Below, piece after piece: positions 6,384-53,035 of a DNA stretch of 61,930 nucleotides. A program made the position numbers and the translations under genes. The notes under the pieces were generated by a model. It worked only from the letters and a program-made list of their open reading frames with translations. It was not told the origin of the DNA and made no database searches. The stretch comes from a virus. Position 1 is the stretch's first letter; each line of letters begins with the position of its first letter. The stretch lies in IMG/VR virus record IMGVR_UViG_3300013099_000022; one strand, given 5' to 3'.

Positions 6384-6386
6384 ATA

Positions 6387-6695: not shown

Positions 6696-6710
6696 AAATT
6701 ATCCTTTCAA

Positions 6711-6986: not shown

Positions 6987-7005
6987 ATTAATTTCCTTTC
7001 TTTTT

Positions 7006-9187: not shown

Positions 9188-9411
9188 GTTTGTTCCTTTC
9201 TTTTTAATTCTATTCTCGCTTCACATTCGTTATCCTTTGAGATTGATTCTAATGTTATTTTTGATACAATATGTCCAAACATCATTTCACCAACTTTTGG
9301 TATTCTTTCTAAAAACATTTCAGTTTTAGTTCCGTCTGGATATATTATATCAACATCATAATCAATCTTTCTCTCATCAAAAACTTCATCATAAAATTCA
9401 GCCATAATCAA
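9184..9411 (-). CDS. Hypothetical protein (75 aa)
   Basis: ORF track; 4-nt overlaps with both neighbours. Confidence 0.35.
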   Translation of the reverse strand: MIMAEFYDEVFDERKIDYDVDIIYPDGTKTEMFLERIPKVGEMMFGHIVSKITLESISKDNECEARIELKRKEQT

Positions 9412-19183: not shown

Positions 19184-22100
19184 TTATCTCCATATCATCA
19201 TACTAATAAAATAACTATTTAATAAATCTCTAACAGGTGATGATTTTGCTGTACGATATTTAGCATGACCTGTTTGTATAATATCTGATAAAATTTCATT
19301 CTTTGTTATATGATCATCAGATAACGGTCCAAAAAATTCAGCAAGTAGATTTGGACAATTATAACTAATAAAAGAATATGTATCCAATTCACCCATTCTT
19401 TGACCACCTTCTCTTTTTTTACCAGCGGTTGGTTGAAAGGTTTTACTTACAACTGGACCAGTACTTCTAGCAGCTAATTTATCTTTAGCTATATGTTCCA
19501 ATTTTAACATATACATATATCCAACAGGAACTTTACTTTTTGTTTTTGTATTATATTCTGGTAATTTTAAATTATAACCAGCTTTAAGACCTAAGCTTTT
19601 TAAAGCAGCTAATATTTCTTTATAAGCTGGAGCTTTAAATGGAGGTATTAATATAGTCATAGATCCAGAATCTTTAACTTGTTTCATAAACTCTTTAAAT
19701 TTAGTATCTGACATAGCTCTAAAACTATTAATCAACTTTTTACTAAATTCTTTATTTTTTGTCATATCAAGATTAGGAAGAACTTTATTTAATAATGCTA
19801 TAACTTTTGTTTTATTATTTAATTTAAGTATTTGTCTTCCAAGTTCTTTAGATATAAGTCCAGTATACATTTCATATAATTGACCAACATTCATACGACC
19901 AACTACTCCAATAGGATTTAAAATAATATCAACTCTATCTCCAGTAGTAGTTCTTGGCATATTTTCTTCTTTTTCAATAAGAGAAACAATACCTTTAGCG
20001 CCATGTCTATTAGTTAATTTATCACCAATACCAACAGGAAGTTCTTGTTCTAGTTTAAATTTAATTAAAACACCTTGAATGACTTCTCCTTTATATATAA
20101 ACTTTTCTTTAGGTTTTAAACCATATCTAGATCTCGTTCTTTTAGTTAAAGCATCTAATTCTGGAAATTTTCCTTCTTTTAAATTATTAAATACTTCTAT
20201 ATCAACAATTTTACCACCAGGAGATTTTTTAATCATATGACCAGAAACAACTTCAACCCCTTCCTCTTCCTCATCAAAACCAATTAATTCTTCAATCTCT
20301 CCAATACTCTTTCTTAATAATGGTTCTCCTTTTATAGTCTCAGCTCCTAATTTATTTATAAATACAACTCTGTCATCTTTTGCTATTTCAACTTCTTCAA
20401 CTATACCATGTAATGAATTTAGAATTCCTTCTTTTACTATTCTTTCAGATATAACAATTCCATCCTCAAAGTTAAAACCTTTATAAGGCATTAAAGCAAC
20501 ACACATACTTCTTCCAAGAGCAATAGATCCACCAGTAATACATGATCCTTCAGCTATTATACTTTTATATTTAACAACTTGACCAACCTTTACAGTAGGT
20601 TTAAATACACTTAATGTATCCTTACCAGATCCTGATCTTAAATGAACTGGTGTTATTGATATAACTTTATTACCACCAGTACTACATTTAATAGAAATAT
20701 CATCTTTTGTTACCCTAGTAATCTTTCCATTACAAGGAGATTTTTTGATAAAATCATCAGACAAGACACTTGTTAAAATTGATTCATATCCTGATTGAAT
20801 CATTGGTATTTCTGGGTTTCTTAATGGTACAGCTTGTCTCATTTGACTACATCCAAACATAACCCTATTACCATCGTTATTTTCAACAAATGGTATTTGA
20901 GCAGCTGTTGTAGATAAAAGTCCAGAATTTTCACCTTCTTTTTTATCTTTAGTTTGAATAATACCTCTCGCTGATGTTATGAAAGCATCAACAGTTAATT
21001 GCTGTACAATACCAACATTTTCACCTTCAGGTGTATCAAGTGTATCAATATTTCCAAACATAGAATCATGAACATTACGACCTTCATTTTGTATAGCTTG
21101 TTTATCAGGTATACCTCCAATTGCTTTACCAACAGGAGAAACTCTTGTTTTAGTAGCCATTTCTTCTATTGGATTAGCATACTCCATATCAGCTACAATT
21201 TCTGAATTTATAAAATCGCTTAATACTTTAGTTTGAGATATAGAAAATATAGCTTTTTTATTGCCAGATAATACTTGTTCTTTATATTCTGTGTGAGCTG
21301 CTAAAATTTGCTTTTGTGCTAGATGAACAAGAATCTCTGAATTTCTTATTCTTTGATTTGATATATCATTTCTTTTTTGTACAAATCCTTCAACTGCTTT
21401 AGATGACATATATTTCATAATCAAATGTAATTCAGATGGTAATTGTTTATTTATTAAAACTTGTTTAGCTACAGGATCCACAATATTCTCTAAATTTGAT
21501 TGTATTAAAAATGTTGAATTAATACGACCCGCTATTTTAATAATCAAATCATTAAAATATTGTTTAGTTAAAAACTCTGCTTTTAAATTATATGAACTAA
21601 TGTTGGAATGAACTAATGATTGAATTAATTCTTCTTTTAATTTTGTATTGATATTTTCAAATAAAATCCATTGGTTATCGTCAACTTTAACGGTCCATTT
21701 AACCTCTTTATCAGGTTTCTCGTTTGTTATCTTATACCTAATATCATATAATTTCAGTGTCTCTTTAAAACCAAAACTAAAGGATAATAGAACCAATAAA
21801 GGAACTTTATATGATCCAATGTATGCTTCTAAATATTCTTCTCTTTTTGTTCTTTTACTCCAAATATGGAATGTAGAATAACTACTTTCAAACTTACTAT
21901 CATATTTTTTAGGGAATGTTATTGGACATAAAACTAATTGATTAATAAGACATTTTTTCTTACCATTAATTTGAAATGTTCCATCATCTGCTATATTAGG
22001 AACATCTAATAAAATTTCATGTTCTCTTTTAAATTTATCAACCATGGTAATTTTTATAGTACTAATATTTGATGGAGATAAATCCCCTCTTCTTATAGGT

Positions 22101-23275
22101 TTTTTAACAATATTAATAGTTTTAAACTTTAACGGAATATTTTTTGTTTCTAAAACCTTAAAAGAATTCACAACATCTTTCTTTAAATTAGTTTCAAAGT
22201 CTATTTTTCTTTTTTCAAAAATATGTTCAGGTGATTTATTACCAACTGCATTAGAAACATTTGATAATTGTATAACTAAATCTTCTGCTGTGGTTTCTGT
22301 TTTTTTAGGTTGTAATAATTCATCAGCATATTTTTTATCAATAACTTTTAGAGCAGCAGTTTTTTTATTTTCTGGAATTTTTGAAGTCGTTTTACGAGAT
22401 TTTCCCATATCGCCAGTTGTTCTATATAATACAGATGCTGTTGCAATATCTTTAGCGTCATTATTAGTTATATCATTATTATGAGCTTTTTCTAAAGTAT
22501 TTGGATTTTTCTCAAAAAACTTTTGTATTGATTGTTTAAATTTATTTTTGTTAGAAGGTGTTATATCATCTTTAATTTTTTTAATTACTGTATTGGTCGC
22601 AGTATTTATTTTATTTTCAAGTTCTTCATCATCATCAATAATTTTAATATTTTTAAGAAATAAATTTATTCTATTGAATTTAATAGATCTATCTTTCATT
22701 AATAGTCGATATCTAGATGAATTATCCCCAATGGTATTTAGTATCAAATGATCATAGTATAATTTATTTTTCTTTAATTCTATAACAAATGGAAATATTT
22801 TTCTATCAATATATTTATTCATACCTTTAGTTGCATTGGTACTATACATAAAAATCTTTTGATAATTATTAGGAAATGAACTAAATATTTTATCAATTAT
22901 ATTTTTTAATATAAAACCACCACGAGCTCTATAATTTTTTAATTTATATGCATTATCTAATATATTTAAAAAAGGTGTTAAGTCATACATAAGATTTTGT
23001 TTTTGAGGTATTGATTGTGTAGAACTAGAAGCTACCAAACCATACGCCTTATATGTTTTTTTAAGTTCTGGTGACATAAAGCTATATGGAATTTTTGTTT
23101 TAGGAACGATAACTTTTTTAACATCCACTCTTTTTAAATTTAATTTAGAATAATCATCAACTAATGTTGAATTTTCACTAAAGTAAAGTATAATGAAAGG
23201 ATTCTTGGAATCTTGTGGAAATCGTATCCCATTAACAACATGTGTAAATGGTTTAAGCGCTTTAAATTGAATCAT
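19184..23275 (-). CDS. Multisubunit RNA polymerase beta subunit homolog (full length, 1363 aa)
   Basis: C-terminal conserved beta motifs: ILNPIGVVGRMNVGQLYE (cf. NPLGVPSRMNIGQ) and GGQRMGELDTYSF (cf. GGQRFGEME); length matches bacterial beta. Confidence 0.8.
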   Translation of the reverse strand: MIQFKALKPFTHVVNGIRFPQDSKNPFIILYFSENSTLVDDYSKLNLKRVDVKKVIVPKTKIPYSFMSPELKKTYKAYGLVASSSTQSIPQKQNLMYDLTPFLNILDNAYKLKNYRARGGFILKNIIDKIFSSFPNNYQKIFMYSTNATKGMNKYIDRKIFPFVIELKKNKLYYDHLILNTIGDNSSRYRLLMKDRSIKFNRINLFLKNIKIIDDDEELENKINTATNTVIKKIKDDITPSNKNKFKQSIQKFFEKNPNTLEKAHNNDITNNDAKDIATASVLYRTTGDMGKSRKTTSKIPENKKTAALKVIDKKYADELLQPKKTETTAEDLVIQLSNVSNAVGNKSPEHIFEKRKIDFETNLKKDVVNSFKVLETKNIPLKFKTINIVKKPIRRGDLSPSNISTIKITMVDKFKREHEILLDVPNIADDGTFQINGKKKCLINQLVLCPITFPKKYDSKFESSYSTFHIWSKRTKREEYLEAYIGSYKVPLLVLLSFSFGFKETLKLYDIRYKITNEKPDKEVKWTVKVDDNQWILFENINTKLKEELIQSLVHSNISSYNLKAEFLTKQYFNDLIIKIAGRINSTFLIQSNLENIVDPVAKQVLINKQLPSELHLIMKYMSSKAVEGFVQKRNDISNQRIRNSEILVHLAQKQILAAHTEYKEQVLSGNKKAIFSISQTKVLSDFINSEIVADMEYANPIEEMATKTRVSPVGKAIGGIPDKQAIQNEGRNVHDSMFGNIDTLDTPEGENVGIVQQLTVDAFITSARGIIQTKDKKEGENSGLLSTTAAQIPFVENNDGNRVMFGCSQMRQAVPLRNPEIPMIQSGYESILTSVLSDDFIKKSPCNGKITRVTKDDISIKCSTGGNKVISITPVHLRSGSGKDTLSVFKPTVKVGQVVKYKSIIAEGSCITGGSIALGRSMCVALMPYKGFNFEDGIVISERIVKEGILNSLHGIVEEVEIAKDDRVVFINKLGAETIKGEPLLRKSIGEIEELIGFDEEEEGVEVVSGHMIKKSPGGKIVDIEVFNNLKEGKFPELDALTKRTRSRYGLKPKEKFIYKGEVIQGVLIKFKLEQELPVGIGDKLTNRHGAKGIVSLIEKEENMPRTTTGDRVDIILNPIGVVGRMNVGQLYEMYTGLISKELGRQILKLNNKTKVIALLNKVLPNLDMTKNKEFSKKLINSFRAMSDTKFKEFMKQVKDSGSMTILIPPFKAPAYKEILAALKSLGLKAGYNLKLPEYNTKTKSKVPVGYMYMLKLEHIAKDKLAARSTGPVVSKTFQPTAGKKREGGQRMGELDTYSFISYNCPNLLAEFFGPLSDDHITKNEILSDIIQTGHAKYRTAKSSPVRDLLNSYFISMMIWR

Positions 23276-24359: not shown

Positions 24360-24692
24360 TTACCCTTTACAATTTTTAGAACATTTCTTTTTATAACCAT
24401 CTTTTGTTCCTATAAATGGTAATACTTTACCGCATTCACATAAAGCTCTCCCATTATAACAATTCATTACATTATAAACTCTTTCTTTGAATGAAGATGA
24501 TTTAGGTAAGTAGTCTGTATATTTATATAAAGCATCATAAATTCTAATTGAATTTATTTTTATTTTTTTGGAAGCACCTCTTAATCCATCAGGAAAATTT
24601 TCTTTTATATAAATTGACACTATTTCTCTATTCATAAATTTACCTCTTTTATTTTTCCAATCCAGATAATGGATCATTATTAATAATATCAT
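24360..24692 (-). CDS. Hypothetical protein with C-terminal Cys cluster
   Basis: CECGKV...CSKNC; overlaps 5' end of neighbour in the ORF track by 44 nt, so the true start may be internal. Confidence 0.35.
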   Translation of the reverse strand: MILLIMIHYLDWKNKRGKFMNREIVSIYIKENFPDGLRGASKKIKINSIRIYDALYKYTDYLPKSSSFKERVYNVMNCYNGRALCECGKVLPFIGTKDGYKKKCSKNCKG

Positions 24693-26988
24693 CTAACATA
24701 TCACGTTTTACTAAAGATACTGCTCCACCTGTATGAAAAGTTTTCATTATTAATTGCGTGCCTCTTTCTCCAATAAGTTGAGCAGCTAATATTCCAATAT
24801 AAGGAGTTTGATGTCTTTGTAATAATTTACCATAACAAGTATGACATATTTTTTCAGACTTACAATAGATAGGAGTTCTTATACTAGCTATATCACCAAC
24901 TTTAAATTTAGCTCTTTCAAATTCCATCAATTTCCCGTTTTTAATAACAAACCTTCCTGTAAATCTTTTAATTAAAACATCATTAAGTTTTATGTTTAAT
25001 GTTTTTGTTGTTTTACAATCTTTTATACGAGGGTCAAGTTCTACTGTATTTAATAAATAAGCTAATTTTCTTGACATATATCCTGTTTCAGCTGTATTAA
25101 TAACTCTATCAATAATACCTTTTCTTGCTCCTTGAGAGGCATCAAAGTATTCTCTATTAGATAAACCATCAGCAAATGACCCTGATATAGGATCTAAAAC
25201 ATTACCGTCAGGATCAGCGATAACACCTTTTGCAACTAGTATTTGCATTGGTTGACCCCATCCCTTAGTAGACCCTGAATTAGCAAGATCTCCAAATCCT
25301 GTATTGTCTAAATGCTTTTCTAATATTTTTTGAGCTTCCTCTATTAGAGTTTGAGCTTCCTCTGGATCTGCTGTTTTTAATTTTTCTTTAATCTTTAAAA
25401 CCGAGGCTGGTAATTCAAAAGTATCTAAGCTCATAGATGGAGCCATGATGGTAGCCCATTTAAATCCAACTTCTTTTAATTTATCAACAACTATTTTAAT
25501 AATATCATCACCATGTTTATTATAAGTCTGTTCAATCTTTGAGTTAATTGTTTTTTTAGTTGCTTGTGCTTCCATATAACCCATATCTTTTGGAAAGCAA
25601 CTATTAACAATAGCTTTACCCATTGTTGTTTTTTGACCTCTATATTTAACTGCTATATACGGTTCGGTTGCATTTTCAATATCTTCATTAGATACTGCTA
25701 ATGGTGACCCTGTTGGTTTTTTATCTTTTGTAATAGTATATAACCCAGCCCATATTTCTTTTGATAAACCAAAAATAAACTCAGAAGATGATGTTCCAGA
25801 AGTTAGTTTCATCATTCTTGTTCTTGCTTCATCTTGAGCCTCATCTGTTAATGGATGATATACAGCCATTGTATCGCCATCAAAATCTGCATTATGAACA
25901 CCAACTTGAGTAGTAGACATAAGCATTGTATCGCCTCTATGTAAGACAGGAAAATAAGCTAAATAACTTTGAGTATGTAAAACTGGATCCCTTTTTACTA
26001 CTACAACACGACCCATCATTGAAACTTCTGTTTGTATAAAGAATAATTCATAAAGATTTTCTGGAATTTTATCTCCTTCTTTAATACCTTTCATTACTCT
26101 TTTAACAGATTCAGTTGAAAGTTCCATTCCATTAAATTCTTTGATACCTTTTTCTAAAACATCTTTATCAACTTTACCAGAATATAATAATCTGTTCATA
26201 ATAAAAGGTTCAAATAAGCTAATAGCTAATCTTAGTGGTAATCCAACTTCATTGATTTTTATTTTTGGATCAGGTGTTATAACAGATCGACCAGAAAAAT
26301 CAATACGTTTTCCTAACATTTGATCTCGAATAATACCTTTCTTTTTACCAATCTTTGATCTAATATAATTATCATGATCCATAACTGCTAATTGCATAGA
26401 ATAATTTAATAAATCATATAACGGACCAGAACCAGAAGATCTTAATTGAGAAGCCTTTCTCATAACAGAAATATATACATCATTTAATTGATCATCCATC
26501 CTATTACCATCTTCACCTTTTATAGAAGGTCTTAAATCTGGAGGAATTACAATAATTTTATCAATAAACATTGTGTTGTTTTTAGTTTCTTTTTTAATGA
26601 GTTTAATAAGCTTTTTTCTTAATTCAGTTCCACCTCTCCAATTTATACTAGGAAATAATTTTATAAACTCTTTCATCCCAGTAACACCTTTATTGTTTAT
26701 CTCTAATATACCATCTTTATCTAAAATAAAAGATTCTTCAGTAGAAATAAACTTTTCTACTCTTCTATCTATTTGTAATAATATTCTATACATAGCAGGA
26801 TGAATAGCGTAACCATATAATTCAAAATAAGAGAATATAATTCTTCTATCTGGCGAACCATCTGGTCCAAAAATGTCTTCACTAAACAAACCTTCTTCAT
26901 GAAAGTCACCAGATTTAGTGGTAGTGATCATAGATGTTACTGGTTTAAGATTTTTACAAAAACTTTTTGGATTTAATAATCTTAACAT
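24649..26988 (-). CDS. Multisubunit RNA polymerase beta-prime subunit, N-terminal fragment (split beta-prime)
   Basis: Catalytic NADFDGD motif present; N-terminal ...EDIFGP motif; ends at AAQLIGERGTQLIMKTFHTGG (bridge helix/trigger-loop start), so the C-terminal roughly 40 percent of beta-prime is not encoded here. Confidence 0.85.
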   Translation of the reverse strand: MLRLLNPKSFCKNLKPVTSMITTTKSGDFHEEGLFSEDIFGPDGSPDRRIIFSYFELYGYAIHPAMYRILLQIDRRVEKFISTEESFILDKDGILEINNKGVTGMKEFIKLFPSINWRGGTELRKKLIKLIKKETKNNTMFIDKIIVIPPDLRPSIKGEDGNRMDDQLNDVYISVMRKASQLRSSGSGPLYDLLNYSMQLAVMDHDNYIRSKIGKKKGIIRDQMLGKRIDFSGRSVITPDPKIKINEVGLPLRLAISLFEPFIMNRLLYSGKVDKDVLEKGIKEFNGMELSTESVKRVMKGIKEGDKIPENLYELFFIQTEVSMMGRVVVVKRDPVLHTQSYLAYFPVLHRGDTMLMSTTQVGVHNADFDGDTMAVYHPLTDEAQDEARTRMMKLTSGTSSSEFIFGLSKEIWAGLYTITKDKKPTGSPLAVSNEDIENATEPYIAVKYRGQKTTMGKAIVNSCFPKDMGYMEAQATKKTINSKIEQTYNKHGDDIIKIVVDKLKEVGFKWATIMAPSMSLDTFELPASVLKIKEKLKTADPEEAQTLIEEAQKILEKHLDNTGFGDLANSGSTKGWGQPMQILVAKGVIADPDGNVLDPISGSFADGLSNREYFDASQGARKGIIDRVINTAETGYMSRKLAYLLNTVELDPRIKDCKTTKTLNIKLNDVLIKRFTGRFVIKNGKLMEFERAKFKVGDIASIRTPIYCKSEKICHTCYGKLLQRHQTPYIGILAAQLIGERGTQLIMKTFHTGGAVSLVKRDMLDDIINNDPLSGLEK

Positions 26989-39381: not shown

Positions 39382-39585
39382 TTACTCCATTATGATTTTC
39401 ATTTTACCAGTTTGATCTAATCGTGATCTTTGAACTCCACCTTCAATAAAAACTCCATTTTCAATATAATCACATTCAAATCTAGTTAATCTATCTTGAT
39501 CACCACCCAAACATGTGTTGCAGTCATTATATGGACAATTTGTTCTATGTGGACATATTTGATTTGCTTCTAATATTAAAGACAT
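39382..39585 (-). CDS. Small Cys-rich hypothetical protein (67 aa)
   Basis: CPHRTNCPYNDCNTC pattern. Confidence 0.35.
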   Translation of the reverse strand: MSLILEANQICPHRTNCPYNDCNTCLGGDQDRLTRFECDYIENGVFIEGGVQRSRLDQTGKMKIIME

Positions 39586-39646: not shown

Positions 39647-40393
39647 TTAAACACAATTCATTCTTTCCTCCATTTTTTTTATTTGAGAATAAACATCAAT
39701 ACCAAAACCTATATGTTTAGTTTCATATAATTTAATAAGTACTTTTCTTTGGAGGAATCTATTTTGCTCTAATGATTCAATATCTGTTGTACCCCACCAT
39801 AAATTTTCACCGTGTTCTTCAAATACATTTCTAGGAAATATAAAAATTCCTAAATGTTTTTTATAATCATCTAAAGGTAAATAAGATCCATTCTTTAGAA
39901 TAGGAACTACTGCTCTTGAATTATAAACCATATAATTTTCATTTGACGTAACTATTTTACAAGACAATGGACTTGTTAAATCCTCCATACAAAAAAATTT
40001 TGTATAGAAAGTTACAATTTCATTATTAAATAATTCATCTATATTTGAGAATGTTTTATTTATCTCTTCTGGGTTTATTAATGGTTCATCACATGGTATA
40101 GAAACATAATACTTATATTTATATTTATTTATTGATTTAAAATATTGATATGTCCTATGAGTCCCACAACATGCATCGCTTATAAAATAACCTTTAACCT
40201 GGTCAAATTCATCTGTTATTTTTATACCAAAATCTTCATCGTCTGTTGCTATAATTATATCATCAATAAAATTTAACTTAGATGTGTTATTAATAACATG
40301 TTCTATTATTCTCTTTCCATTAAGTTTGTGGATAATTTTATTTGGGAATCTAGTTGACTTTAATCTTGCAGAAATAACTGCTACAGTTCTCAT
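39647..40393 (-). CDS. CMP-sugar cytidylyltransferase (KdsB/NeuA/PseF family; likely CMP-Kdo-type synthetase)
   Basis: N-terminal AVISARLKSTRFPNK matches the family signature (IPAR..S.RLP.K). Confidence 0.65.
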   Translation of the reverse strand: MRTVAVISARLKSTRFPNKIIHKLNGKRIIEHVINNTSKLNFIDDIIIATDDEDFGIKITDEFDQVKGYFISDACCGTHRTYQYFKSINKYKYKYYVSIPCDEPLINPEEINKTFSNIDELFNNEIVTFYTKFFCMEDLTSPLSCKIVTSNENYMVYNSRAVVPILKNGSYLPLDDYKKHLGIFIFPRNVFEEHGENLWWGTTDIESLEQNRFLQRKVLIKLYETKHIGFGIDVYSQIKKMEERMNCV

Positions 40394-40989
40394 TATTTTA
40401 TTCCATAAAAATCATTAAAATCATTAATTGCATCTTGATTAAAAAACAACCCTTCCATATATTTTGGAGGAACAGTAGCATAATCAGCACCAAATTCTAC
40501 AGCATCTCTAATATCAACTATAGATCTAAAACTTGCTGCTATAATTTTAGTATTATATTTTCTTTCTTCTTTTAGATTTACACATTCTATAAGAAAATCT
40601 TTATTTTTATTTTTAGCACATAAAACAATACTATAGTCACTATCAACTTCACAAGCATAATCAAATTGGAAGAGATCATAAGTAATAGTTGCACAAGTTT
40701 TATAACCCATATTTTTTATTTTTTTAATTAAATCAAATCCATTAAAATCTTTTGTTATTAACAATGGAACTTTGAATATAATTTTATCGCTTGTGTTATA
40801 GTGATATAATTCTTTTAAAGATCTAACTTGAATAAATATTTTATTAAAATTATGTTTATTTTTAATAAAAAATTCATCTGCATTAGTTTTAGATTTATTT
40901 AATAATGATGGGTTGCTAGTTGCTCCATCAACAAAATTTTTCCATTTTTCAATTTCATCCTGATCAGCTGTGTCAATAAAATAATTCAT
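40393..40989 (-). CDS. Transaldolase / fructose-6-phosphate aldolase (TalC/Fsa)-like protein
   Basis: N-terminal MNYFIDTADQDEIEKW...GATSNPSLL matches the Fsa/TalC start (FLDTA..EI......G.TTNPSL). Confidence 0.5.
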   Translation of the reverse strand: MNYFIDTADQDEIEKWKNFVDGATSNPSLLNKSKTNADEFFIKNKHNFNKIFIQVRSLKELYHYNTSDKIIFKVPLLITKDFNGFDLIKKIKNMGYKTCATITYDLFQFDYACEVDSDYSIVLCAKNKNKDFLIECVNLKEERKYNTKIIAASFRSIVDIRDAVEFGADYATVPPKYMEGLFFNQDAINDFNDFYGIK

Positions 40990-41690
40990 TAAGTATTCCT
41001 TTTTAATATTAAATTTATATCTATAGTATCTAAATCATACTCTAAATATTTTATTAAGTCTTTTAATTTATCATCAATTTGTTCTAATTCATCATTAATT
41101 GTTTCTAAATTAATTTTTTTTAATAAAAATTCATCAAATTTTGTAATTGGTTTAATTTGTTTTAAATCAGTTCGTTTAATTAATTGGTTCATTAATTTAT
41201 TTTTACCAATCTCTTCAATTTTAATAACATTACTTTTTTCTTTAAATACCCCAATTAATATTTTTTTATACATTTTAATAAATTCATCTATTGAAAAATG
41301 TGTGGTGTTTACCATCCAGCAAATTTTAGGATGTCTAATAATAAAAATATTATAAAATATATTAGGTGGTAACTTATTATTTAAAACCCAGTCAAACCCA
41401 CCTGGTTTTACAACAAAATTATAATTAGGAAATTCTTTTAATAACAAATTAAACAAATTTAAAAAATAATTACCTTTAAATATCTCTAATGATTCAATAT
41501 CAGGTGTTATTTTATTTAACCATTTTTTACCAATTTGATATTCTATTTCGTCCTTATTATCTTTTAAATGATCTGGGGATATATCTATCCATTTATAATT
41601 ATTTTCTTTTTTAAATAAATTATAAACTATTGTTTTACCAGAATTAAAACTACCATGTAAAATAACAACTTTTTGATTAGATTTTTTCAT
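40989..41690 (-). CDS. P-loop kinase-like protein
   Basis: Walker A ILHGSFNSGKT near N-terminus; 233 aa; no further family assignment possible. Confidence 0.4.
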   Translation of the reverse strand: MKKSNQKVVILHGSFNSGKTIVYNLFKKENNYKWIDISPDHLKDNKDEIEYQIGKKWLNKITPDIESLEIFKGNYFLNLFNLLLKEFPNYNFVVKPGGFDWVLNNKLPPNIFYNIFIIRHPKICWMVNTTHFSIDEFIKMYKKILIGVFKEKSNVIKIEEIGKNKLMNQLIKRTDLKQIKPITKFDEFLLKKINLETINDELEQIDDKLKDLIKYLEYDLDTIDINLILKRNT

Positions 41691-42588
41691 AATTAGTAGA
41701 AGTCCTATTTATTCTTTCCTTACTTTTAAATTTATTGTTATAAATAACAATATCATTTTGATCTTTTCTTTGATCGCAATTTTTACATATATAATTAGTT
41801 TGATTTAATGTATTATTCTCATGATGTTTTTTTAAATCTAAAAAAGGTTTATCATTAAATATATCTTCCATAGTATGATTTAAAAAATTCCCTAATAACA
41901 ATTTTCCATTATAATCAAAACAACACATATTAACTGTGCCATCAACTTGTATTTGATATGGACTATTCCAAGGTCTTCCGCAAGTTGATTTTACTATATC
42001 ACCTTTTCTAAATTTAAAAGCATCTACCCAATTATGAGGTTTCCACATTTCAATTGTTGCATAATCATCATATTTTTCTTTAATTAAATCAATTTGGTCA
42101 TCATTAATTCCAGGTATAATATCAAATGTTAATATTAAATTTATATTTGTTTCATTGATAATATAATCAATATTCCATAACACTTGTCTAAATTGGTATA
42201 AAGGAGCTTTAGTTATTATATGATATGGTTTATATAAAACTGAATGTAAACTAATTCTTATATCTTCAACACCCACCTCATTTAAAAAATCTACTCTTGG
42301 GTAAGGTAAATAATAACCATTAGATAATATATGAATTTTAAATCCACATTCTTTTGCATATTTTATTTTTTCTAATATTTGCCAGTCTACAAATGCTTCA
42401 CCAAAACCAGAAATTGTAATATTGGTTATGTTAGGTAATTCCTTTTTAATTTTATCAACAATCAAACAAAATCTTTCTAACGACATTTCTTCTTTTTTAC
42501 GAACAAATTTTGTGGAATGAGGACAAAATATACAAAAATAATTACATATTGTACATGTTTCTATTCTTACTTCATTTGTATTTAGCAT
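41677..42588 (-). CDS. Radical SAM enzyme with C-terminal SPASM/twitch-like Cys cluster
   Basis: CTICNYFCIFC (CxxxCxxC cluster) near N-terminus; additional Cys pairs (CGRPW...MCCF..., CKNCDQ) in C-terminal third. Confidence 0.7.
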   Translation of the reverse strand: MLNTNEVRIETCTICNYFCIFCPHSTKFVRKKEEMSLERFCLIVDKIKKELPNITNITISGFGEAFVDWQILEKIKYAKECGFKIHILSNGYYLPYPRVDFLNEVGVEDIRISLHSVLYKPYHIITKAPLYQFRQVLWNIDYIINETNINLILTFDIIPGINDDQIDLIKEKYDDYATIEMWKPHNWVDAFKFRKGDIVKSTCGRPWNSPYQIQVDGTVNMCCFDYNGKLLLGNFLNHTMEDIFNDKPFLDLKKHHENNTLNQTNYICKNCDQRKDQNDIVIYNNKFKSKERINRTSTNYEKI

Positions 42589-43957
42589 TTTGTACTTTCA
42601 ATAAAAATCTATTTTGATAATCTGTAATTGTTAATATTTCAATATTATATTTTTTAGGGAATAATTTTTTTATTTTTTCTTTTGATTCAGAAATTGACAT
42701 TCCTTCATGGTTTGTTGGTTCTAAAAATAAATTATATTTTGTTATACTTAAAAGAAAATCTAATAAAAGTACTGTTTCATTAAAATCTCCAATAGATAAC
42801 ATTGATACATTATCAAACTTTATATTATTTTTTCTACACTCTATAATAAATTTTTTTATATCTTGTTTAATAAAGTTTATATTTAAATTCTCAATTTTAT
42901 TTATTAACTTACATAATTTTATTATATCATCTTCTATATCAACACCTGTTGCTTTTATATTTTTTAATTCTATTAATTCTTTAATAATAAAACCGGAATT
43001 ACAACCCATATCTAAATATGAACTATTTGGTTTTATATTATTTGCAATTGCATTTATTCTTATATGTTGATTTTCCATCTTTCTTCTATTACCATCTATC
43101 AATAATTCTCCATTTATAGTAATAGGATTATATACATCCCACTCATCTAGAGATTTTATAAATTTTTTTATTTCATAAATATTGCTTGTATAAGTTCTAT
43201 TTATATAATTATATAAATTTATAAAACCTTTAATATATTTTAATAAATCTTTAACAGGTATTTGAGAATCTGCATCACAACTAGCATTCATAGGATCAAT
43301 TGTTGATTCAATAAACAAACCATTCGCTCCTGATGCAATTGATGACATTCCTAAATCAAAAGCATAACTTCTATTATATATTTTTGAATGATTTTGTGGG
43401 TGGGTAATATCAACTAATACAGCATCACAATTACTTGTTTCATTCATATGTCTAATATGTCGAGGATCCATTACAACATTATCATATCCAAATGTAGTTC
43501 CTCTATCTGTTATAAAAACCTTAGTATCTTTATTTAAATTTTTAATTTTTGATACAGGTTTTTTAACATCACCAGAAGATAACCATTGTGGTTTTTTAAT
43601 ATGAATAGGTTTTCCAGTTTTAGATGCAGCTTTTGCAAGAGAAGTTTGCATTGCTAAAAATGCTGGAATTTGAATCAAATCTACATATTTTGCATATGTT
43701 TCTATTTGTTCAACTGTATGAAAATCAGTAGTTATTTTACAATGAAATTCCTCTTTGATTTTAATTAAACTTTTTATTCCTGATTTAAAACCTGGACCAG
43801 AATAGTTTTGAATTCGTGTTCTATTATCTTTAATACAAGAAGATTTAAAATAAAAATCAATGTTGTTATACTTATTAACAATTGCTACTATTTCTTTTGC
43901 ATCTTTTCGTAATTTTGATAAATTTTCAATAACACAAGGTCCGCATATTAAAATCAT
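42572..43957 (-). CDS. kdsA: 3-deoxy-8-phosphooctulonate (Kdo-8-P) synthase fused to a class I SAM-dependent methyltransferase domain
   Basis: N-terminal 250 aa: ICGPCVIE, YSGPG...IKEEFHCKITTDFH, QIPAFLAMQTSL, IKKPQWLS, DRGTTFGYDNVVMD, DITH closely follow KdsA; C-terminal domain has MTase motif I YLDMGCNSGF. Confidence 0.7.
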   Translation of the reverse strand: MILICGPCVIENLSKLRKDAKEIVAIVNKYNNIDFYFKSSCIKDNRTRIQNYSGPGFKSGIKSLIKIKEEFHCKITTDFHTVEQIETYAKYVDLIQIPAFLAMQTSLAKAASKTGKPIHIKKPQWLSSGDVKKPVSKIKNLNKDTKVFITDRGTTFGYDNVVMDPRHIRHMNETSNCDAVLVDITHPQNHSKIYNRSYAFDLGMSSIASGANGLFIESTIDPMNASCDADSQIPVKDLLKYIKGFINLYNYINRTYTSNIYEIKKFIKSLDEWDVYNPITINGELLIDGNRRKMENQHIRINAIANNIKPNSSYLDMGCNSGFIIKELIELKNIKATGVDIEDDIIKLCKLINKIENLNINFIKQDIKKFIIECRKNNIKFDNVSMLSIGDFNETVLLLDFLLSITKYNLFLEPTNHEGMSISESKEKIKKLFPKKYNIEILTITDYQNRFLLKVQNAKYK

Positions 43958-45678
43958 ATATCACACTTTCCGCTAGAACATTGAACATCTCCTGTTTCAA
44001 GTGATCTCTTAACTATGTTATTTCTAATGTGTTCTATAGCTTGTTCTTTAGTAATTTTATTTAATGGTTGTTCACCTCTACAACCATCCCTATATACAGT
44101 AACCCCTTTTAAGTCAGTTATATTTTCTAATAATAATTGACTTAAATCTTCTGTTGTAGTTTCTTTTGGTAAATTAATTGTCTTTGATACTGAACTATCA
44201 ACATATCTTTGTATTACTGCTTGAATATTAAAATGATCTTGTGGGTTTAAATCAAAAGTGTCAACAAACCAATCAGGCATTTCTTCTTCATTTTTTAACA
44301 TAGTTTCATACATTGGGTGAACATATATTCTTTCACTAACTCTATCTTTTCTTTTATATGCTTTAGCAAATAATGGTTCTGCAGATCCTGTATATGGTGT
44401 TAATAAACTAACTGTACCTGTTGGTGCTATTGCTTGACATGTTACATTTCTTATTCCATATTTTTTAATGTCCATTCTAATAGATGCTGGTAATTTTCTA
44501 ATAAAAGACGACTTACCATATAAGACAGGATCAAATGCAGGAAATGATCCTTTTTCTCTTGCAAGTTCAACTGAAGCTTCATAGCATTTATTTCTAATAA
44601 ATTGCATTAATCTTTCTAATTCTTGAATAGATTTTTCAGATCCATATCTTGCTTTTTTAGCAAATAAATATTCAGCTACTCCTAATACTCCAATACCAAT
44701 TCTTCTTGATGTATTAGCTTTATTTTCAATTTCTTTCATAACATATTTATTACTTTGAATTACATCATCAAGAAACCTAACAGCTAGAAAAATAGTTTTT
44801 TCTAATTTTTTCCAATTTGTATTAATATTACCTGTAATAAAATTTGGTAATACTAAAGATCCAAGATCACATACATCACGAGCTGATAGACAAGTTTCCC
44901 CACAAGGGTTCGTGCCTAAAACTGGATCATAATACCATGAATTATTTTTTTGAAAGTTAGTCCAATTAATTAAACCTGGTTCTGCAGACTTAATCATATT
45001 ATCAACTATCTTATCCCATATTGATTTTGCTTTTATTGTACCATATTCTTTTTGATTAAATTTAAATGTCCAGTCTGAATCAGTTTCAACTGCTTGTATG
45101 AATTCATCATTAATTGCTACGGATATATTAAAATGTGATATTTTACCATGAACTAATTTTGCATCAATAAAATCCATAACTTCTGGATGATTTACATCAA
45201 CATGAACTAAACCAGCTGCTCGTCTGGCGCCGCCACTTTCAATAGTTGCAGCAACAGCATCAGCAGCTTCTACAAACGAAACTAATCCAGATGATGTTCC
45301 ACCTTTACCTAATATTACATCTCCCTTTGGTCTAAGTTTGGAAAAATTTGCTCCTACCCCTCCACCCTCTGACCATAGTATTAAACTCTCTTTTAAGAAT
45401 TGACCTATATCTTCTATATTATCATTAATTGGTAAATGATAACAATTAAACAATGATCCTCTTGTTCTACCAGAATTTCTTAATATACGACCTCCAGGTA
45501 AAAAATCCATAGTACCAATCATCTCATGGAATTCTTCTCTATATTTAACTCTATTTGTTTCTGATGCTGCCATTGTATCTGCTACTCGATTTGCACACAT
45601 ATCCCAATTTTCTCCCTTCATGAGATATCTACTTGTTGCAACTTCAAGAGAACTACCTTCCAATATAACTGATTTCAT
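43954..45678 (-). CDS. nrdJ: Ribonucleotide reductase, class II (NrdJ-like)
   Basis: GGGVGANFSKLRPKGD and active-site NPCGE motif (class II hallmark), C-terminal Cys pair CSSGKC. Confidence 0.7.
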   Translation of the reverse strand: MKSVILEGSSLEVATSRYLMKGENWDMCANRVADTMAASETNRVKYREEFHEMIGTMDFLPGGRILRNSGRTRGSLFNCYHLPINDNIEDIGQFLKESLILWSEGGGVGANFSKLRPKGDVILGKGGTSSGLVSFVEAADAVAATIESGGARRAAGLVHVDVNHPEVMDFIDAKLVHGKISHFNISVAINDEFIQAVETDSDWTFKFNQKEYGTIKAKSIWDKIVDNMIKSAEPGLINWTNFQKNNSWYYDPVLGTNPCGETCLSARDVCDLGSLVLPNFITGNINTNWKKLEKTIFLAVRFLDDVIQSNKYVMKEIENKANTSRRIGIGVLGVAEYLFAKKARYGSEKSIQELERLMQFIRNKCYEASVELAREKGSFPAFDPVLYGKSSFIRKLPASIRMDIKKYGIRNVTCQAIAPTGTVSLLTPYTGSAEPLFAKAYKRKDRVSERIYVHPMYETMLKNEEEMPDWFVDTFDLNPQDHFNIQAVIQRYVDSSVSKTINLPKETTTEDLSQLLLENITDLKGVTVYRDGCRGEQPLNKITKEQAIEHIRNNIVKRSLETGDVQCSSGKCDI

Positions 45679-45840: not shown

Positions 45841-46338
45841 TTATTTTTTCTTTAAAATTTTATTAAATTTTGCTATTTGTTTTTGATAGAATGTTTCTTC
45901 TGGTTTAGTAATTCTTAAAGGATGTGTGATTGAAACTTTGGATTTGAATAATAGATATTGTTGTTGTTTGAATTTTCCTGTATCAACATTTCCAAGTGAA
46001 ATTAGATGATATAATCCTTTTACTTTTCTTCCTTGCATAGTTATAGTAATATGAGCTGGTGTAAATTTATTTAATGTAGCAACACCTTGGTCAAATAATT
46101 CAATATTACCACCGCCATATTCTCCAGCAGGAATATCTCCTTTAAACAAAGCTTCTTTTTCAGAATGAATATGAGTCTTAATTGCTAAAACTCTTTTACC
46201 TGAATGTAAAGGAACTGTTTTAGGAACTGCAAATGAGTGCCAGTGATTGCTTTTATTAGGATCTTCAAATCGCAAATCTTGATGATATCCAGCACGTCTC
46301 GCTTTATGGTTATGTATTACAAATCTTATTTTTTTCAT
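45841..46338 (-). CDS. LigD-type 3'-phosphoesterase (PE) domain protein
   Basis: N-terminal RFVIHNHKARRAGYHQDLRFE matches LigD PE signature (FV.Q.H.A.RLHYD.RLE); 165 aa standalone. Confidence 0.5.
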   Translation of the reverse strand: MKKIRFVIHNHKARRAGYHQDLRFEDPNKSNHWHSFAVPKTVPLHSGKRVLAIKTHIHSEKEALFKGDIPAGEYGGGNIELFDQGVATLNKFTPAHITITMQGRKVKGLYHLISLGNVDTGKFKQQQYLLFKSKVSITHPLRITKPEETFYQKQIAKFNKILKKK

Positions 46339-52042: not shown

Positions 52043-53035
52043 TTAACTTAAAATATTAGTACAGCTTATATTAATTGGTGTATCATTAAAATCTTTTCCC
52101 GTTTTATTATAATATACATGTAATGATTCTATTAAATGTTTATTATATTTCATAATTTTCTCGTAATATTTTATAGGTATTTCTCTGTCAGATAAAATAT
52201 GTATTATTGGTCTAAAAATTTGTTCATTAAAAACAACACTTTTTATAGCTGCTGCGTACGAAGTTGATAAGGCTGCTATATAAGCTGCAGCTTTATTCTT
52301 TAATTCTAGCACATTATATATATGTTCAGAGTAAATATCAAATATTCCCTCCGCCATAATAATATGTTTTGAATTTTTTTTAAACCCAAACAACTTATAA
52401 TAATCTAATAATTGTGATGGTTGAATATTTAATTTATAATATCTAAACTCTGATTTGCTGTCAATGTTTCTCATGGATACACAAGATTGATTTTCAGTTA
52501 AAAACCCCACAAAGTTAGTTTGTAAATAATCTTTAAACCTTAAAACTTTTTCATCTAATTGTATATTATTTATTCTTATTAATTCATCAATATCAAACAC
52601 TAACCCACTAACAGAATCTAATGGTATGTTTTCAAATTTAAATCTTTGTTTAATGTATAATGATTTTAAAGAAAACTTATCAGTATTTAATTTTGGTAAT
52701 ATAATATCTTTTGGTTTAAATTCATTTTTTTCAAATTTTACTTTTTCTACTTTAAAGTGTTTAACTTGTTCTTTATTAACATAAGTAGATGAAGAATCTT
52801 TACCTTCTATCTTTTCCGTAAGTTTTCTAATTAATCCGCTTTGATTACATCCACCTCTAAAGCAATGAAATATAGGATCATGCATTGAAATCCATAAATG
52901 GTCTTTAGATGTTTCTACTCCTAAATCACACCAAGGGCATTTAGTAATAATATTCTTAGGATTGGTTTTTATTGAACCTAAATTAACTTCAAGATAATTT
53001 AAAAATTCTTCATTATATATACCTACTGTCCCCAT
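52043..53035 (-). CDS. DnaG-like DNA primase (CHC2 zinc-binding domain plus TOPRIM)
   Basis: CPWCDLGVETSKDHLWISMHDPIFHCFRGGC (cf. DnaG CPFH.EKTPSF......FHCFGCG); TOPRIM-like IIMAEGIFDIYS (cf. vEGymDv). Confidence 0.55.
   Translation of the reverse strand: MGTVGIYNEEFLNYLEVNLGSIKTNPKNIITKCPWCDLGVETSKDHLWISMHDPIFHCFRGGCNQSGLIRKLTEKIEGKDSSSTYVNKEQVKHFKVEKVKFEKNEFKPKDIILPKLNTDKFSLKSLYIKQRFKFENIPLDSVSGLVFDIDELIRINNIQLDEKVLRFKDYLQTNFVGFLTENQSCVSMRNIDSKSEFRYYKLNIQPSQLLDYYKLFGFKKNSKHIIMAEGIFDIYSEHIYNVLELKNKAAAYIAALSTSYAAAIKSVVFNEQIFRPIIHILSDREIPIKYYEKIMKYNKHLIESLHVYYNKTGKDFNDTPINISCTNILS

Follow-up and report, generated by a model that had tools for sequence, protein, structure and literature searches.

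A predicted five-gene operon for a tailored, CMP-activated Kdo-type sugar acid in a large uncultured bacteriophage

The stretch of viral DNA analysed here (61,930 nucleotides, hereafter the window) most likely derives from a large (jumbo-type) uncultured bacteriophage and carries a candidate five-gene operon for a tailored, CMP-activated Kdo-type sugar acid. The product is probably an octulosonic acid destined for glycan decoration and formed by a route unlike the textbook pathway. Five ORFs were found on the minus strand between positions 39647 and 43957, where five consecutive genes had been predicted (Table 1). Neighbouring genes overlap by 1-17 nt and form one operon, and the first cassette gene shares 4 nt with the RNR gene at the stop of the latter. 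The module had been placed upstream of the RNR gene; along the direction of transcription it lies downstream. The phage contig L007 and the distant L087 likewise have KdsA directly after RNR. The contig of the window is at least 73 kb long, and those related to it extend to 200-300 kb. In the 62-kb window neither KdsD nor KdsC was found, as originally predicted, nor was a Kdo transferase or other glycosyltransferase.

Table 1. Positions of the cassette domains and of the adjoining RNR gene in the window
Feature	Positions	Strand	Remarks
KdsB-like CMP-(Kdo-type sugar acid) synthetase	39647..40393	minus	CTP_transf_3 E 2e-28
Divergent TAL/FSA-type class I aldolase, proposed aldose-phosphate supplier for KdsA	40393..40989	minus	TAL_FSA 59 bits; PHROG transaldolase
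Small orphan-family protein with Walker-A-like loop and sulfotransferase-like fold (sulfotransferase or kinase)	40989..41690	minus	
Radical SAM enzyme, twitch-type C-terminal domain (single auxiliary cluster)	41677..42588	minus	Radical_SAM E 1e-14, SPASM E 6e-10
Class I SAM-dependent methyltransferase domain, aa ~300-461, KdsA-fused	42572..43060	minus	Methyltransf_31/25
KdsA-like (Kdo-8-phosphate synthase-like) domain, aa 1-255 of fusion	43193..43957	minus	metal-dependent type, aldose pocket remodelled
RNR large-subunit-like gene (context, no pathway part)	43954..45678	minus	Ribonuc_red_lgC E 3e-100; directly 5' of cassette

Profile and structure matches support a pathway to a CMP-activated Kdo-type sugar acid that includes tailoring enzymes, and speak against an aromatic-pathway DAHP synthase. 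The fusion ORF (42572-43957) matches Pfam DAHP_synth_1 over aa 1-239 (E 1e-44). Its KdsA-like domain scores 226 bits with the NCBIfam model KDO8P_synth, below the cut-off of 314, versus at most 65 bits with DAHPS models, and its best PDB match is the Aquifex KDO8PS with 171 bits versus about 42 bits for DAHPS. The KdsB-like protein reaches 143-145 bits with the KdsB subfamily models, below their cut-offs, versus 33 bits with PseF, and all 13 of its PDB matches are KdsB, in agreement with the predicted KdsB/NeuA-family CMP-sugar cytidylyltransferase. None of KdsA, KdsB and the aldolase reaches its NCBIfam equivalog cut-off, so each may act on a substrate other than that of the textbook enzyme.

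The KdsA-like domain had been said to track KdsA motif by motif. This holds for the metal ligands (C11, H185, E222, D233) and the PEP ligands (K41, K46, K124, R154), all of which are retained, but the motifs that bind arabinose-5-phosphate (A5P) differ. In the window KANRS is replaced by KDNRT, R106 by M and HSVQ by HPQN, and the L7 loop is about 6-7 residues shorter. The changes are consistent throughout the phage clade (KDNRT; M, K or Q in place of Aquifex R106; HPQN or HPNK; a truncated L7 loop). In the 1FWW structures R106 of the Aquifex enzyme is a ligand of the A5P phosphate. L7 has been implicated in A5P binding (PMC6650799). In the loci examined the pocket is non-canonical in cassettes with the aldolase and canonical in those with KdsD. 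With a non-canonical pocket, the enzyme may lead to something other than plain Kdo.

The predicted transaldolase/Fsa-like aldolase was borne out by the TAL_FSA profile match. The protein keeps the Schiff-base Lys (FKVP), the Asp (IDTAD) and the TSNP motif, but has Leu at the position of the catalytic FSA-Tyr131 (TalB-Phe178), as do all Kdo-linked TAL proteins, and Lys in place of the phosphate-site Arg. Cassettes with this aldolase are conserved in eight further loci (L005, L007-L009, L061, L062, L087, L088). In cellular Kdo operons of Thermoplasmatota (L028), Pirellulales (L055) and Spirochaetales (L049; gene order KdsA-TAL-KdsB-rSAM), TAL_FSA fills the slot of KdsD, and in the first two it is fused to a KdsD-type CBS pair in place of the SIS-CBS KdsD. 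This placement, together with the two fusions, gives independent support to the idea, already put forward in the original prediction, that the aldolase supplies the KdsA substrate. Both operons have kept a KdsC-like phosphatase, which implies that the product there is still phosphorylated. The formation of A5P from glycolaldehyde and glyceraldehyde-3-phosphate (GAP), the reaction proposed for the phage aldolase, is documented as a side activity of E. coli FsaA, which serves as an "arabinose-5-phosphate aldolase" in synthetic glycolaldehyde-assimilation pathways (PMC9947464). The two proteins share the TAL/FSA fold and the Schiff-base lysine; the phage enzyme, apart from the substitutions described above, would carry out the reaction naturally and within a Kdo operon.

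The pocket of KdsA and the Leu of the aldolase bear on an alternative that we regard as unlikely, yet the strongest of those considered. The product would be an ulosonic acid other than Kdo, whose chain length or stereochemistry would already differ before it is tailored and activated with CMP. The aldose handled by the Leu-type aldolase and the remodelled KdsA would be a different epimer of pentose-5-phosphate, the phosphate of a tetrose or hexose, or a sugar without phosphate. The clade-wide pocket changes, the truncation of L7 and their occurrence with the aldolase instead of KdsD are consistent with such a product, as are the lack of KdsC in the phage cassettes and the Leu itself, at the site where the F178Y variant of TalB, not FsaA, is reported to yield ribose-5-phosphate as a by-product (PMC9947464). 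Arguing against it are the A5P-site residues N48, R49 and S/T50, which are kept in the KdsA-like domain, the KdsC-like phosphatases of L028 and L055, the retention of R106 in one KdsA (P0048, locus L087) despite the presence of the aldolase, and the exclusive match of the cytidylyltransferase to KdsB among solved structures.

The Radical_SAM assignment of 41677-42588 was confirmed, with the core motif CNYFCIFC and invariant C-terminal cysteines C203, C222, C223, C268 and C271, but the tail, thought to be SPASM-like, is of the twitch type with one auxiliary cluster, as in BtrN, and not a full SPASM domain. HygY is a related twitch radical SAM carbohydrate enzyme. BtrN (2-deoxy-scyllo-inosamine dehydrogenase) is the closest solved structure. 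The two have in common the CxxxCxxC core, four C-terminal Cys that align with the auxiliary-cluster ligands of BtrN, and a carbohydrate-related context; the similarity, over the auxiliary-cluster domain of BtrN, is nevertheless weak (31 bits), and Pfam labels the tail SPASM. The protein scores below the cut-off of every NCBIfam equivalog and belongs to no curated radical SAM family; a family search yielded 229 related clusters. It is the most conserved cassette gene and adjoins KdsA and KdsB from 84% identity (L007) down to about 42%. The family is not restricted to Kdo loci: within the flank that was read, a clear Kdo gene accompanies the radical SAM gene in only 11 of 43 cellular and 3 of 25 IMG/VR loci.

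Other giant phages as well as bacteria and archaea possess the same core genes, which appear to be unstudied in the literature. The synteny KdsA-rSAM-(orphan)-TAL-KdsB is found in large phage contigs (L005, L007, L008, L009, L061, L062, L087) at 42-84% protein identity; L088 has the full gene set as well, with KdsA some 4 kb downstream of the radical SAM gene. The match lists of KdsA and the radical SAM protein are linked by 17 contigs that appear to be shared, as judged by coinciding lengths. The cluster is not familiar cargo of annotated phages; no near DNA match was found, and the radical SAM family is absent from 50,697 GenBank phage records. Complete Kdo operons with this radical SAM family occur in Methanolobus (M. 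vulcani L047: KdsB-KdsA-KdsD-KdsC-rSAM-GT2), Thermoplasmatota and Planctomycetota, often with adjoining sugar methyltransferases; the loci concerned include that of an archaeal MAG (L036) and the Thermoplasmatota, Pirellulales and Spirochaetales loci mentioned above. Within 3 kb of the radical SAM gene, 12 of 43 cellular loci encode either a class I methyltransferase or a putative sugar O-methyltransferase of the NanM type (TIGR04371, 53 bits, cut-off 44). In cells, counterparts of the cassette genes belong to loci of the polysaccharide type that also encode GT2 enzymes, sulfotransferases and ABC transporters; a metagenomic polysaccharide locus with the radical SAM family (L014) contains methyltransferase, GT2 and sulfotransferase genes.

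The predicted fusion of KdsA to a class I SAM methyltransferase is real: both domains are matched by profiles (Methyltransf_31 with 31.6 bits, cut-off 27, and Methyltransf_25 with 28.7 bits, over aa 309-383), and an identical 461-aa protein is encoded on 7 contigs, which come from at least three samples. Two further fusions show 52-53% identity. Full-length fusions are limited to three protein clusters (P0001-P0003); the fusion is a rare, lineage-specific event and not the defining feature of the cassette, and KdsA is unfused in most relatives. It nevertheless ties the methyltransferase physically to KdsA, and stand-alone homologues of the domain adjoin the KdsA or radical SAM gene in L011, L012, L016, L026 and L072. 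The P-loop kinase claimed for 40989-41690 is unproven. The protein contains a Walker-A-like motif (GSFNSGKT), but profile searches returned no family match, kinase families included, and its structural model is closest to sulfotransferases, which makes a sulfotransferase-like fold the better reading. A sulfotransferase-like domain also occurs fused to KdsB, in locus L041.

Comparative genomics thus supports the predicted route to a CMP-activated, modified octulosonic acid, with the reservations stated for the kinase and the KdsA pocket. The following steps are deduced from homology and gene context, given the domain identities and gene linkage above. The FSA-type aldolase would join glycolaldehyde and GAP to an aldose phosphate, in the simplest case D-arabinose-5-phosphate or a near analogue of it, so that KdsD would not be needed. 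The metal-dependent KdsA-like domain, with its remodelled pocket, would condense this aldose with PEP, and the phosphate would be removed by the host KdsC or an enzyme encoded elsewhere. The twitch radical SAM enzyme may then activate a sugar C-H bond for a BtrN/HygY-type oxidation or epimerisation, the fused methyltransferase may methylate the sugar, and the sulfotransferase-like protein may add sulfate (or phosphate). Finally, the KdsB-like enzyme would couple the sugar acid to CMP, and a glycosyltransferase encoded outside the window would use it to decorate a glycan on the surface of the infected cell or of the virion.

It is improbable that the genes are ordinary auxiliary metabolic genes, in which case KdsA and KdsB would raise the CMP-Kdo supply of the host for its capsule or LPS, the transaldolase would boost the pentose-phosphate pathway in the manner of cyanophages, and the radical SAM, methyltransferase and orphan genes would be unrelated neighbours. 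Reports on S-SCSM2R (PMC12801897) and on marine viral genomes (PMC5332604) describe phage kdsA and kdsB as genes for the cell wall or LPS, and talC is a classic cyanophage gene. Like TalC, the aldolase is a phage-encoded short subfamily-5 TAL/FSA protein; however, the two are only about 26% identical, and the aldolase is encoded in a sugar-acid operon, not among photosynthesis and pentose-phosphate-pathway genes, and has cellular counterparts that replace KdsD, including the domain swap onto the CBS pair. The non-canonical KdsA pocket, the fused methyltransferase and the conserved linkage of the radical SAM gene, which extends to cellular Kdo operons, also speak against unrelated neighbours.

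Use of the sugar acid for DNA or nucleotide hypermodification instead of a surface glycan, an option raised originally, is very improbable and has no positive evidence. No CMP-ulosonic acid is known to act as a DNA-modification donor. Translational coupling links the cassette to the RNR gene, cassettes of relatives adjoin dCMP deaminase, MazG, QueC and dGTP-diphosphohydrolase-like genes, and phages divert A5P into arabinosylated DNA, but that route runs through A5P isomerase and UDP-arabinose and involves neither KdsA nor KdsB (PMC13326640); moreover, the window yielded neither a DNA glycosyltransferase nor a base-modifying enzyme, and the cellular counterparts sit in the polysaccharide-type loci.

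The operon resembles the canonical bacterial and plant CMP-Kdo pathway (KdsD, KdsA, KdsC, KdsB) in the KdsA-type PEP-aldose condensation with intact metal and PEP ligands and in the KdsB-type cytidylyltransferase. It differs in the FSA-type aldolase that stands in place of KdsD and KdsC, in the remodelled aldose pocket and sub-cut-off scores of all phage members, and in the added radical SAM, methyltransferase and sulfotransferase-like tailoring enzymes. Virus-encoded Kdo genes are already known, and the phage operon adds a variant. A complete Kdo pathway is predicted for the giant viruses CroV and Fadolivirus, with additional sugar methyltransferases and glycosyltransferases in CroV (PMC9614988), and kdsA/kdsB are carried by the cyanophage S-SCSM2R (PMC12801897) and marine T4-like viral genomes (PMC5332604). 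By contrast to the phage operon, these systems follow the textbook isomerase and phosphatase route or contain merely canonical KdsA and KdsB, and a linked radical SAM enzyme or KdsD-replacing aldolase is not described for them in the literature. The KdsA of S-SCSM2R is canonical, with KANRS, R106 and a long L7 loop.

The five ORFs of the cassette lie exactly at the positions given in the original prediction (see table). Neighbouring ORFs overlap by 1-17 nt, and between the first of them and the stop codon of the ribonucleotide reductase (RNR) gene the overlap is 4 nt; the layout of the five genes, which span 4.3 kb, is operon-like. The module had been placed upstream of RNR, whereas in the direction of transcription it lies downstream. 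The G+C content of the cassette is 22.8%, the lowest of the window, compared with 27.3% for the AT-rich window as a whole; the neighbouring RNR gene has 30.8%. The two 2-kb bins with the lowest values (40001-44000; 0.219 and 0.235) both belong to the cassette. A promoter/terminator scan of 38.9-46.5 kb revealed nothing exceeding shuffled expectation.

Coordinates of the features discussed (positions refer to the sequence named in the second column)
Feature	Sequence	Coordinates	Strand
KdsA-methyltransferase fusion	window	42572-43957	-
Radical SAM enzyme (rSAM)	window	41677-42588	-
Orphan ORF	window	40989-41690	-
TAL_FSA aldolase	window	40393-40989	-
KdsB-like enzyme	window	39647-40393	-
RNR	window	43954-45678	-
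67-aa Cys-rich ORF	window	39382-39585	-
LigD_N 3'-phosphoesterase domain protein	window	45841-46338	-
RNA polymerase beta/beta' (multisubunit)	window	19184-23275 and 24649-26988	-
Topoisomerase II	window	5061-8820	
DUF2201 VWA-like/metallopeptidase protein	window	9408-12056	-
849-aa Major Vault Protein-type protein	window	12174-14723	-
ORF rejected as PurZ homologue	window	52043-53035	
Tpt1/KptA RNA 2'-phosphotransferase	window	58310-58864	-
TAL_FSA + CBS + CBS fusion	L028, Thermoplasmatota archaeon	1903-2958	
TAL_FSA + CBS + CBS fusion	L055, Pirellulales bacterium	6745-7914	
KdsB-KdsA-KdsD-KdsC-rSAM-GT2	L047, Methanolobus vulcani NZ_FNCA01000002	4785-9855	
KdsB + C-terminal domain fusion, 489 aa	L041	3601-5067	
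338-aa adenylosuccinate-synthetase-family protein	L007	2317-3333	

The N-terminal domain of the fusion protein (DAHP_synth_1, PF00793, aa 1-239) scores 226 bits with the KDO8P_synth model TIGR01362 (cut-off 314) and 225.8 bits with PRK05198 (cut-off 242), compared with at most 65 bits for DAHPS models. In the PDB comparison the metal-dependent Aquifex KDO8PS ranks best (171 bits) and DAHPS reaches about 42 bits. The refuting condition named in the original prediction, a better match to DAHPS than to KdsA, fails because KDO8PS models and structures outscore those of DAHPS; judged from its sequence, the domain is clearly KdsA-like, though under the equivalog thresholds. The claim that it follows KdsA (Kdo-8-phosphate synthase) motif by motif does not extend to the binding site of arabinose-5-phosphate (A5P). 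When 120 KdsA homologues are aligned with Aquifex KDO8PS, both the window protein and the phage clade as a whole retain the metal ligands C11, H185, E222 and D233 (Aquifex numbering) and the PEP ligands K41, K46, K124 and R154. The A5P-binding signature is absent in the window protein: KANRS reads KDNRT, Met occupies position 106, HSVQ reads HPQN, and the L7 loop is 6-7 residues shorter and lacks SGGxR, whereas the canonical KdsAs of the same alignment retain KANRS, Arg106, HSVQ and a long, Gly-rich L7. The aldose-side signature is altered throughout a large clade of KdsA homologues, from protein cluster P0001 to about P0055. Motif 44-50, FDKANRS in canonical KdsAs, is C[IV]KDNR[ST] in the phage clade; Arg at position 106 gives way to Met, and in other variants to Lys or Gln; HSVQ at positions 185-188 is HPQN or HPNK; and the long L7 loop with SGGxR is 6-8 residues shorter and devoid of this motif. 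Aquifex R106, contributed by the neighbouring subunit, is a ligand of the A5P phosphate. The L7 loop of KdsA has been implicated in A5P binding (PMC6650799).

The fused domain (aa 309-383) exceeds the cut-off of 27 bits with both Methyltransf_31 (31.6 bits) and Methyltransf_25 (28.7 bits) and carries the glycine-rich motif I LDMGCNSGF; the profile searches thus bear out its prediction as a class I SAM-dependent methyltransferase. Full-length KdsA-methyltransferase fusions form only three protein clusters in an index of 5.8 billion proteins, and the window's own fusion protein recurs on seven contigs, from at least three samples. These counts mark the fusion as genuine, rare and specific to a lineage.

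The aldolase matches PF00923 (TAL_FSA) with 59 bits (cut-off 27), conserves the Schiff-base Lys (FKVP), the Asp (IDTAD) and TSNP, and is assigned to the TAL/FSA family of class I aldolases. Compared with an E. coli FsaA reference sequence, it contains Leu at the position of FSA Tyr131/TalB Phe178 and Gln at the Q59/E96 position, and its scores with the NCBIfam equivalogs are 67 bits (cut-off 214) and 57 bits (cut-off 246). By catalytic residues and equivalog scores it would fall outside both FSA proper and transaldolase proper. The Schiff-base Lys and the Leu at the Tyr131/Phe178 position are shared by every Kdo-linked TAL protein, whether from phages or from cells. Cyanophage TalC differs in that it shares only about 26% identity with the window aldolase.

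That an Fsa-like aldolase supplies the substrate of KdsA, as proposed originally, gains support from loci in which TAL_FSA occupies the slot of KdsD, the A5P isomerase (SIS + CBS + CBS). In the Kdo operons of L028 and L055, the KdsD position is taken by a fusion of TAL_FSA with a KdsD-like CBS pair (30-33% identity to KdsD residues ~197-318; positions 203-324 of the NCBIfam KdsD model), and the gene order in L049 is KdsA-TAL_FSA-KdsB-rSAM. The placement of TAL_FSA on the KdsD CBS pair is good evidence, at the level of sequence, that an FSA-type aldolase can substitute for A5P isomerase. E. coli FsaA forms A5P from glycolaldehyde and GAP, a reaction exploited in synthetic pathways (PMC9947464). 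Among the loci examined, TAL cassettes have a non-canonical KdsA pocket and KdsD cassettes (L014, L036, L047) a canonical one, with two partial exceptions: L028 retains KANRT, and P0048, the KdsA of L087, retains R106. Given this co-variation, the aldose may possibly be one other than A5P. A strict association of R106 loss with the presence of TAL was rejected, as P0048/L087 has both Arg and TAL.

The KdsB-like enzyme matches CTP_transf_3 (PF02348, E 2e-28), and the anticipated cytidylyltransferase signature was found, with KdsB models (143-145 bits) scoring best and PseF reaching 33 bits; all 13 of its 13 PDB matches are KdsB (CMP-Kdo synthetase; TIGR00466). It is predicted to be KdsB-like by fold and best-scoring models, and it misses the Kdo-specificity cut-offs of NCBIfam (145 bits against 255, 143 against 193 and 100 against 155). 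Since KdsA, rSAM, TAL and KdsB all score under their NCBIfam equivalog cut-offs, the four proteins are to be regarded as relatives of the textbook enzymes, not as certified equivalents.

The identity of the radical SAM enzyme was confirmed by its match to PF04055 (55 bits, cut-off 29.5) and by the CxxxCxxC motif (C15-x3-C19-x2-C22), which is invariant among 23 homologues. In enzymes of the SPASM subgroup, two auxiliary 4Fe-4S clusters are held by a motif of seven Cys that includes CX2CX5CX3C. The C-terminal tail had been described as SPASM-like, and the Pfam SPASM profile does match (39.7 bits), but only five C-terminal Cys are invariant among the 23 homologues (C203, C222, C223, C268 and C271). 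BtrN, the closest solved structure, has a single auxiliary cluster whose four ligands align with these Cys and are spaced alike, and the tail is predicted to be of the twitch type with a single auxiliary cluster instead of the two-cluster SPASM type. BtrN-type enzymes, which share this twitch-type Cys arrangement with the window protein, oxidize a carbohydrate C-H bond, and the BtrN-related HygY epimerizes one. Within the cassette, conservation is highest for the rSAM gene (84% identity to the orthologue in L007), which encodes the only CxxxCxxC ORF in the window. In the related phage contigs L013, L088, L062 and L006, the cassette rSAM gene is surrounded by between two and five additional radical SAM genes, and L013 also has a DegT aminotransferase.

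The orphan ORF has no family match in Pfam, NCBIfam or PHROG. Its family is tiny (24 representatives among 1.84 billion proteins, none of which reaches an annotated family), and the family profile retrieved only P-loop noise from PDB sequences and Pfam. The family motifs are a Walker-A-like GxxN[SG]GKT loop, RHPK with an invariant Arg, and IKIEE; RHPK resembles the 3'-phosphate-binding motif of sulfotransferases. An AlphaFold model was built with 16 homologues. The protein has the Walker-A-like loop of the P-loop kinase proposed originally and no match to a kinase family; we read it as sulfotransferase-like, with a kinase as a possible alternative. In relatives, the orphan slot or an adjacent slot holds a different family, that of a 266-aa protein which follows KdsB in L007. 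A domain homologous to this protein (E 1e-46) forms the C-terminus of the KdsB fusion of L041 and weakly matches Sulfotransfer_3. No homology is claimed between the orphan family and this KdsB-fused sulfotransferase-like family (hhalign probability 11%). The 11-kb contig of L041 was assigned to a Thermoplasmata MAG, but since its rSAM is 62% identical to the phage enzyme, it probably derives from a phage.

The cassette recurs in related phage contigs (L005, L007, L008, L009, L061 and L062). Close unfused KdsAs (57-66% identity) with an examined context reside on contigs of up to 150-300 kb, and each is followed by the same rSAM gene, an aldolase and a KdsB, usually with one or two orphan copies in between. 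Synteny between L007 and the window extends from RNR to RecA/UvsX. In two distant phage contigs with a KdsA identity of about 42%, the arrangement is RNR-KdsA-rSAM-TAL-KdsB (L087) or rSAM-TAL with KdsA about 3-4 kb downstream (L088), and 17 contigs coincide in size between the KdsA and rSAM match tables. The cassette is not annotated cargo of deposited phage genomes: among 50,697 records, the best match of the rSAM has only 24.8% identity, and megablast of the 7 kb around the locus gave no match.

The cassette flanks of L005, L006, L008 and L009 contain QueC, MazG, dCMP deaminase, a dGTP_diPhyd_N protein, GDP-mannose-dehydratase-type epimerases, UDP-glucose dehydrogenase and GT1, as well as clear sulfotransferases and APS kinase near the cassette; none of these flank genes has a homologue in the window. 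The adenylosuccinate-synthetase-family protein of L007 (271 kb), PurZ-like in size, likewise has none, and a window ORF considered as a PurZ homologue was rejected (no Pfam match, no tblastn hit). Just past KdsB, the window encodes a Cys-rich protein (C-x5-C-x4-C-x2-C) with 48% identity to an ORF of L007; it was not found in the other cassettes.

A scan with the rSAM alignment, restricted to one genome per GTDB species, yielded 45 loci, including many from Omnitrophota, Brocadia, Scalindua, Nitrospirota, Pacearchaeota and Thermoplasmatota and that of the isolate Methanolobus vulcani. Neighbours were identified by local phmmer and hmmsearch of the ORFs. In M. vulcani, a cultured methanogenic archaeon, rSAM comes directly after a complete Kdo operon (KdsB-KdsA-KdsD-KdsC) and is followed by GT2, a gene order shared by L036 from an archaeal MAG. 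To our knowledge, archaea have no LPS. Related Kdo-operon arrangements with rSAM occur in L028, L055, L049 and L018, and in the metagenomic L014 the Kdo operon and rSAM are joined by methyltransferase, GT2, sulfotransferase and ABC-transporter genes. A recurrent rSAM neighbour that lacks a Pfam match is a NanM-type putative sugar O-methyltransferase (TIGR04371, over cut-off). A strong Kdo gene was present within the flank in 11 of the 43 cellular loci and a methyltransferase within 3 kb of rSAM in 12 of the 43; together, 21 loci have one or the other. Kdo genes were found in 3 of the 25 IMG/VR rSAM loci. Based on these counts, the rSAM family has a strong, though not exclusive, link to Kdo and methylation. 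A Kdo-specific family was rejected, as many members have no Kdo neighbours.

From the domain identities, the operon packing, the conservation of the cassette and its linkage to Kdo operons and methyltransferases, we infer the chemical steps, their order and the acceptor as follows. The aldolase would make the aldose for the KdsA-like synthase, which would act on this product; the phosphate would be removed by a host or distally encoded enzyme; tailoring would consist of oxidation or epimerization by rSAM, methylation, and sulfation or phosphorylation; and the KdsB-like enzyme would then activate the sugar with CMP for use by a glycosyltransferase. The predicted absence of KdsD and of the phosphatase KdsC holds within the window, which also contains no homologue of a glycosyltransferase, APS kinase or QueC. 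DNA hypermodification is an unlikely purpose of the activated sugar: where phages are known to use A5P for DNA, the route runs via UDP-arabinose (PMC13326640), and the cellular counterparts of the cassette are polysaccharide loci. A more comprehensive proposal, which we advance tentatively and with considerable doubt, is that the cassette represents an undescribed pathway, widespread in jumbo phages, Omnitrophota, anammox Planctomycetota, Nitrospirota and several archaea, whose products would form a new class of tailored ulosonic acids. A Leu-type FSA-like aldolase would replace the isomerase, a KdsA with a reshaped pocket would form a non-canonical 3-deoxy-ulosonate, and an O2-independent twitch rSAM together with an O-methyltransferase would convert it to an uncatalogued sugar that re-coats the host or the virion.

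The sugar Kdo is a hallmark of Gram-negative envelopes, and its four-step pathway is regarded as invariant and serves as an antibiotic target. Virus-encoded Kdo genes are already known, and the finding is not categorically new: a complete Kdo pathway is predicted for CroV and Fadolivirus (PMC9614988), and Kdo genes occur in cyanophage S-SCSM2R (PMC12801897) and in marine T4-like viral genomes (PMC5332604). The pocket of the S-SCSM2R KdsA is canonical, in contrast to the remodelled pocket of the window KdsA. Among the papers covered by a literature search for a link between radical SAM and Kdo or CMP-Kdo, only the S-SCSM2R genome paper (PMC12801897) came up, and its radical SAM and Kdo genes are unrelated. 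Three elements are apparently undescribed: the bypass through the aldolase, the variant pocket of KdsA and the pairing of rSAM with a methyltransferase. The locus suggests that an FSA-type aldolase can naturally bypass the isomerase step, a reaction hitherto described only as a side activity used synthetically; that KdsAs with an altered substrate pocket form a subfamily of their own; and that an uncharacterised rSAM family is partnered with methyltransferases in many anaerobic bacteria, archaea and very large phages. It may yield a new sugar, a new radical SAM carbohydrate reaction and a means by which phages remodel cell or virion surfaces.

Every sizeable ORF of the window is encoded on the minus strand. 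The RNA polymerase subunits (PHROG matches to two large ORFs), topoisomerase II, UvsX, a Dda-like helicase, a baseplate-type protein, a muramoyl-alanine amidase and an SLT transglycosylase indicate that the source is a large, jumbo-type bacteriophage with its own RNA polymerase and a peptidoglycan-bearing host. Unexpectedly for a phage, one window protein matches PF11978 (E 5e-19), the shoulder domain of the eukaryotic Major Vault Protein, as well as a Vault_3 repeat. The Tpt1/KptA protein (E 2e-49) and the LigD_N protein may form an RNA or DNA end-repair set, and the DUF2201 protein adjoins an AAA ATPase, constituting a MoxR/VWA-type pair.
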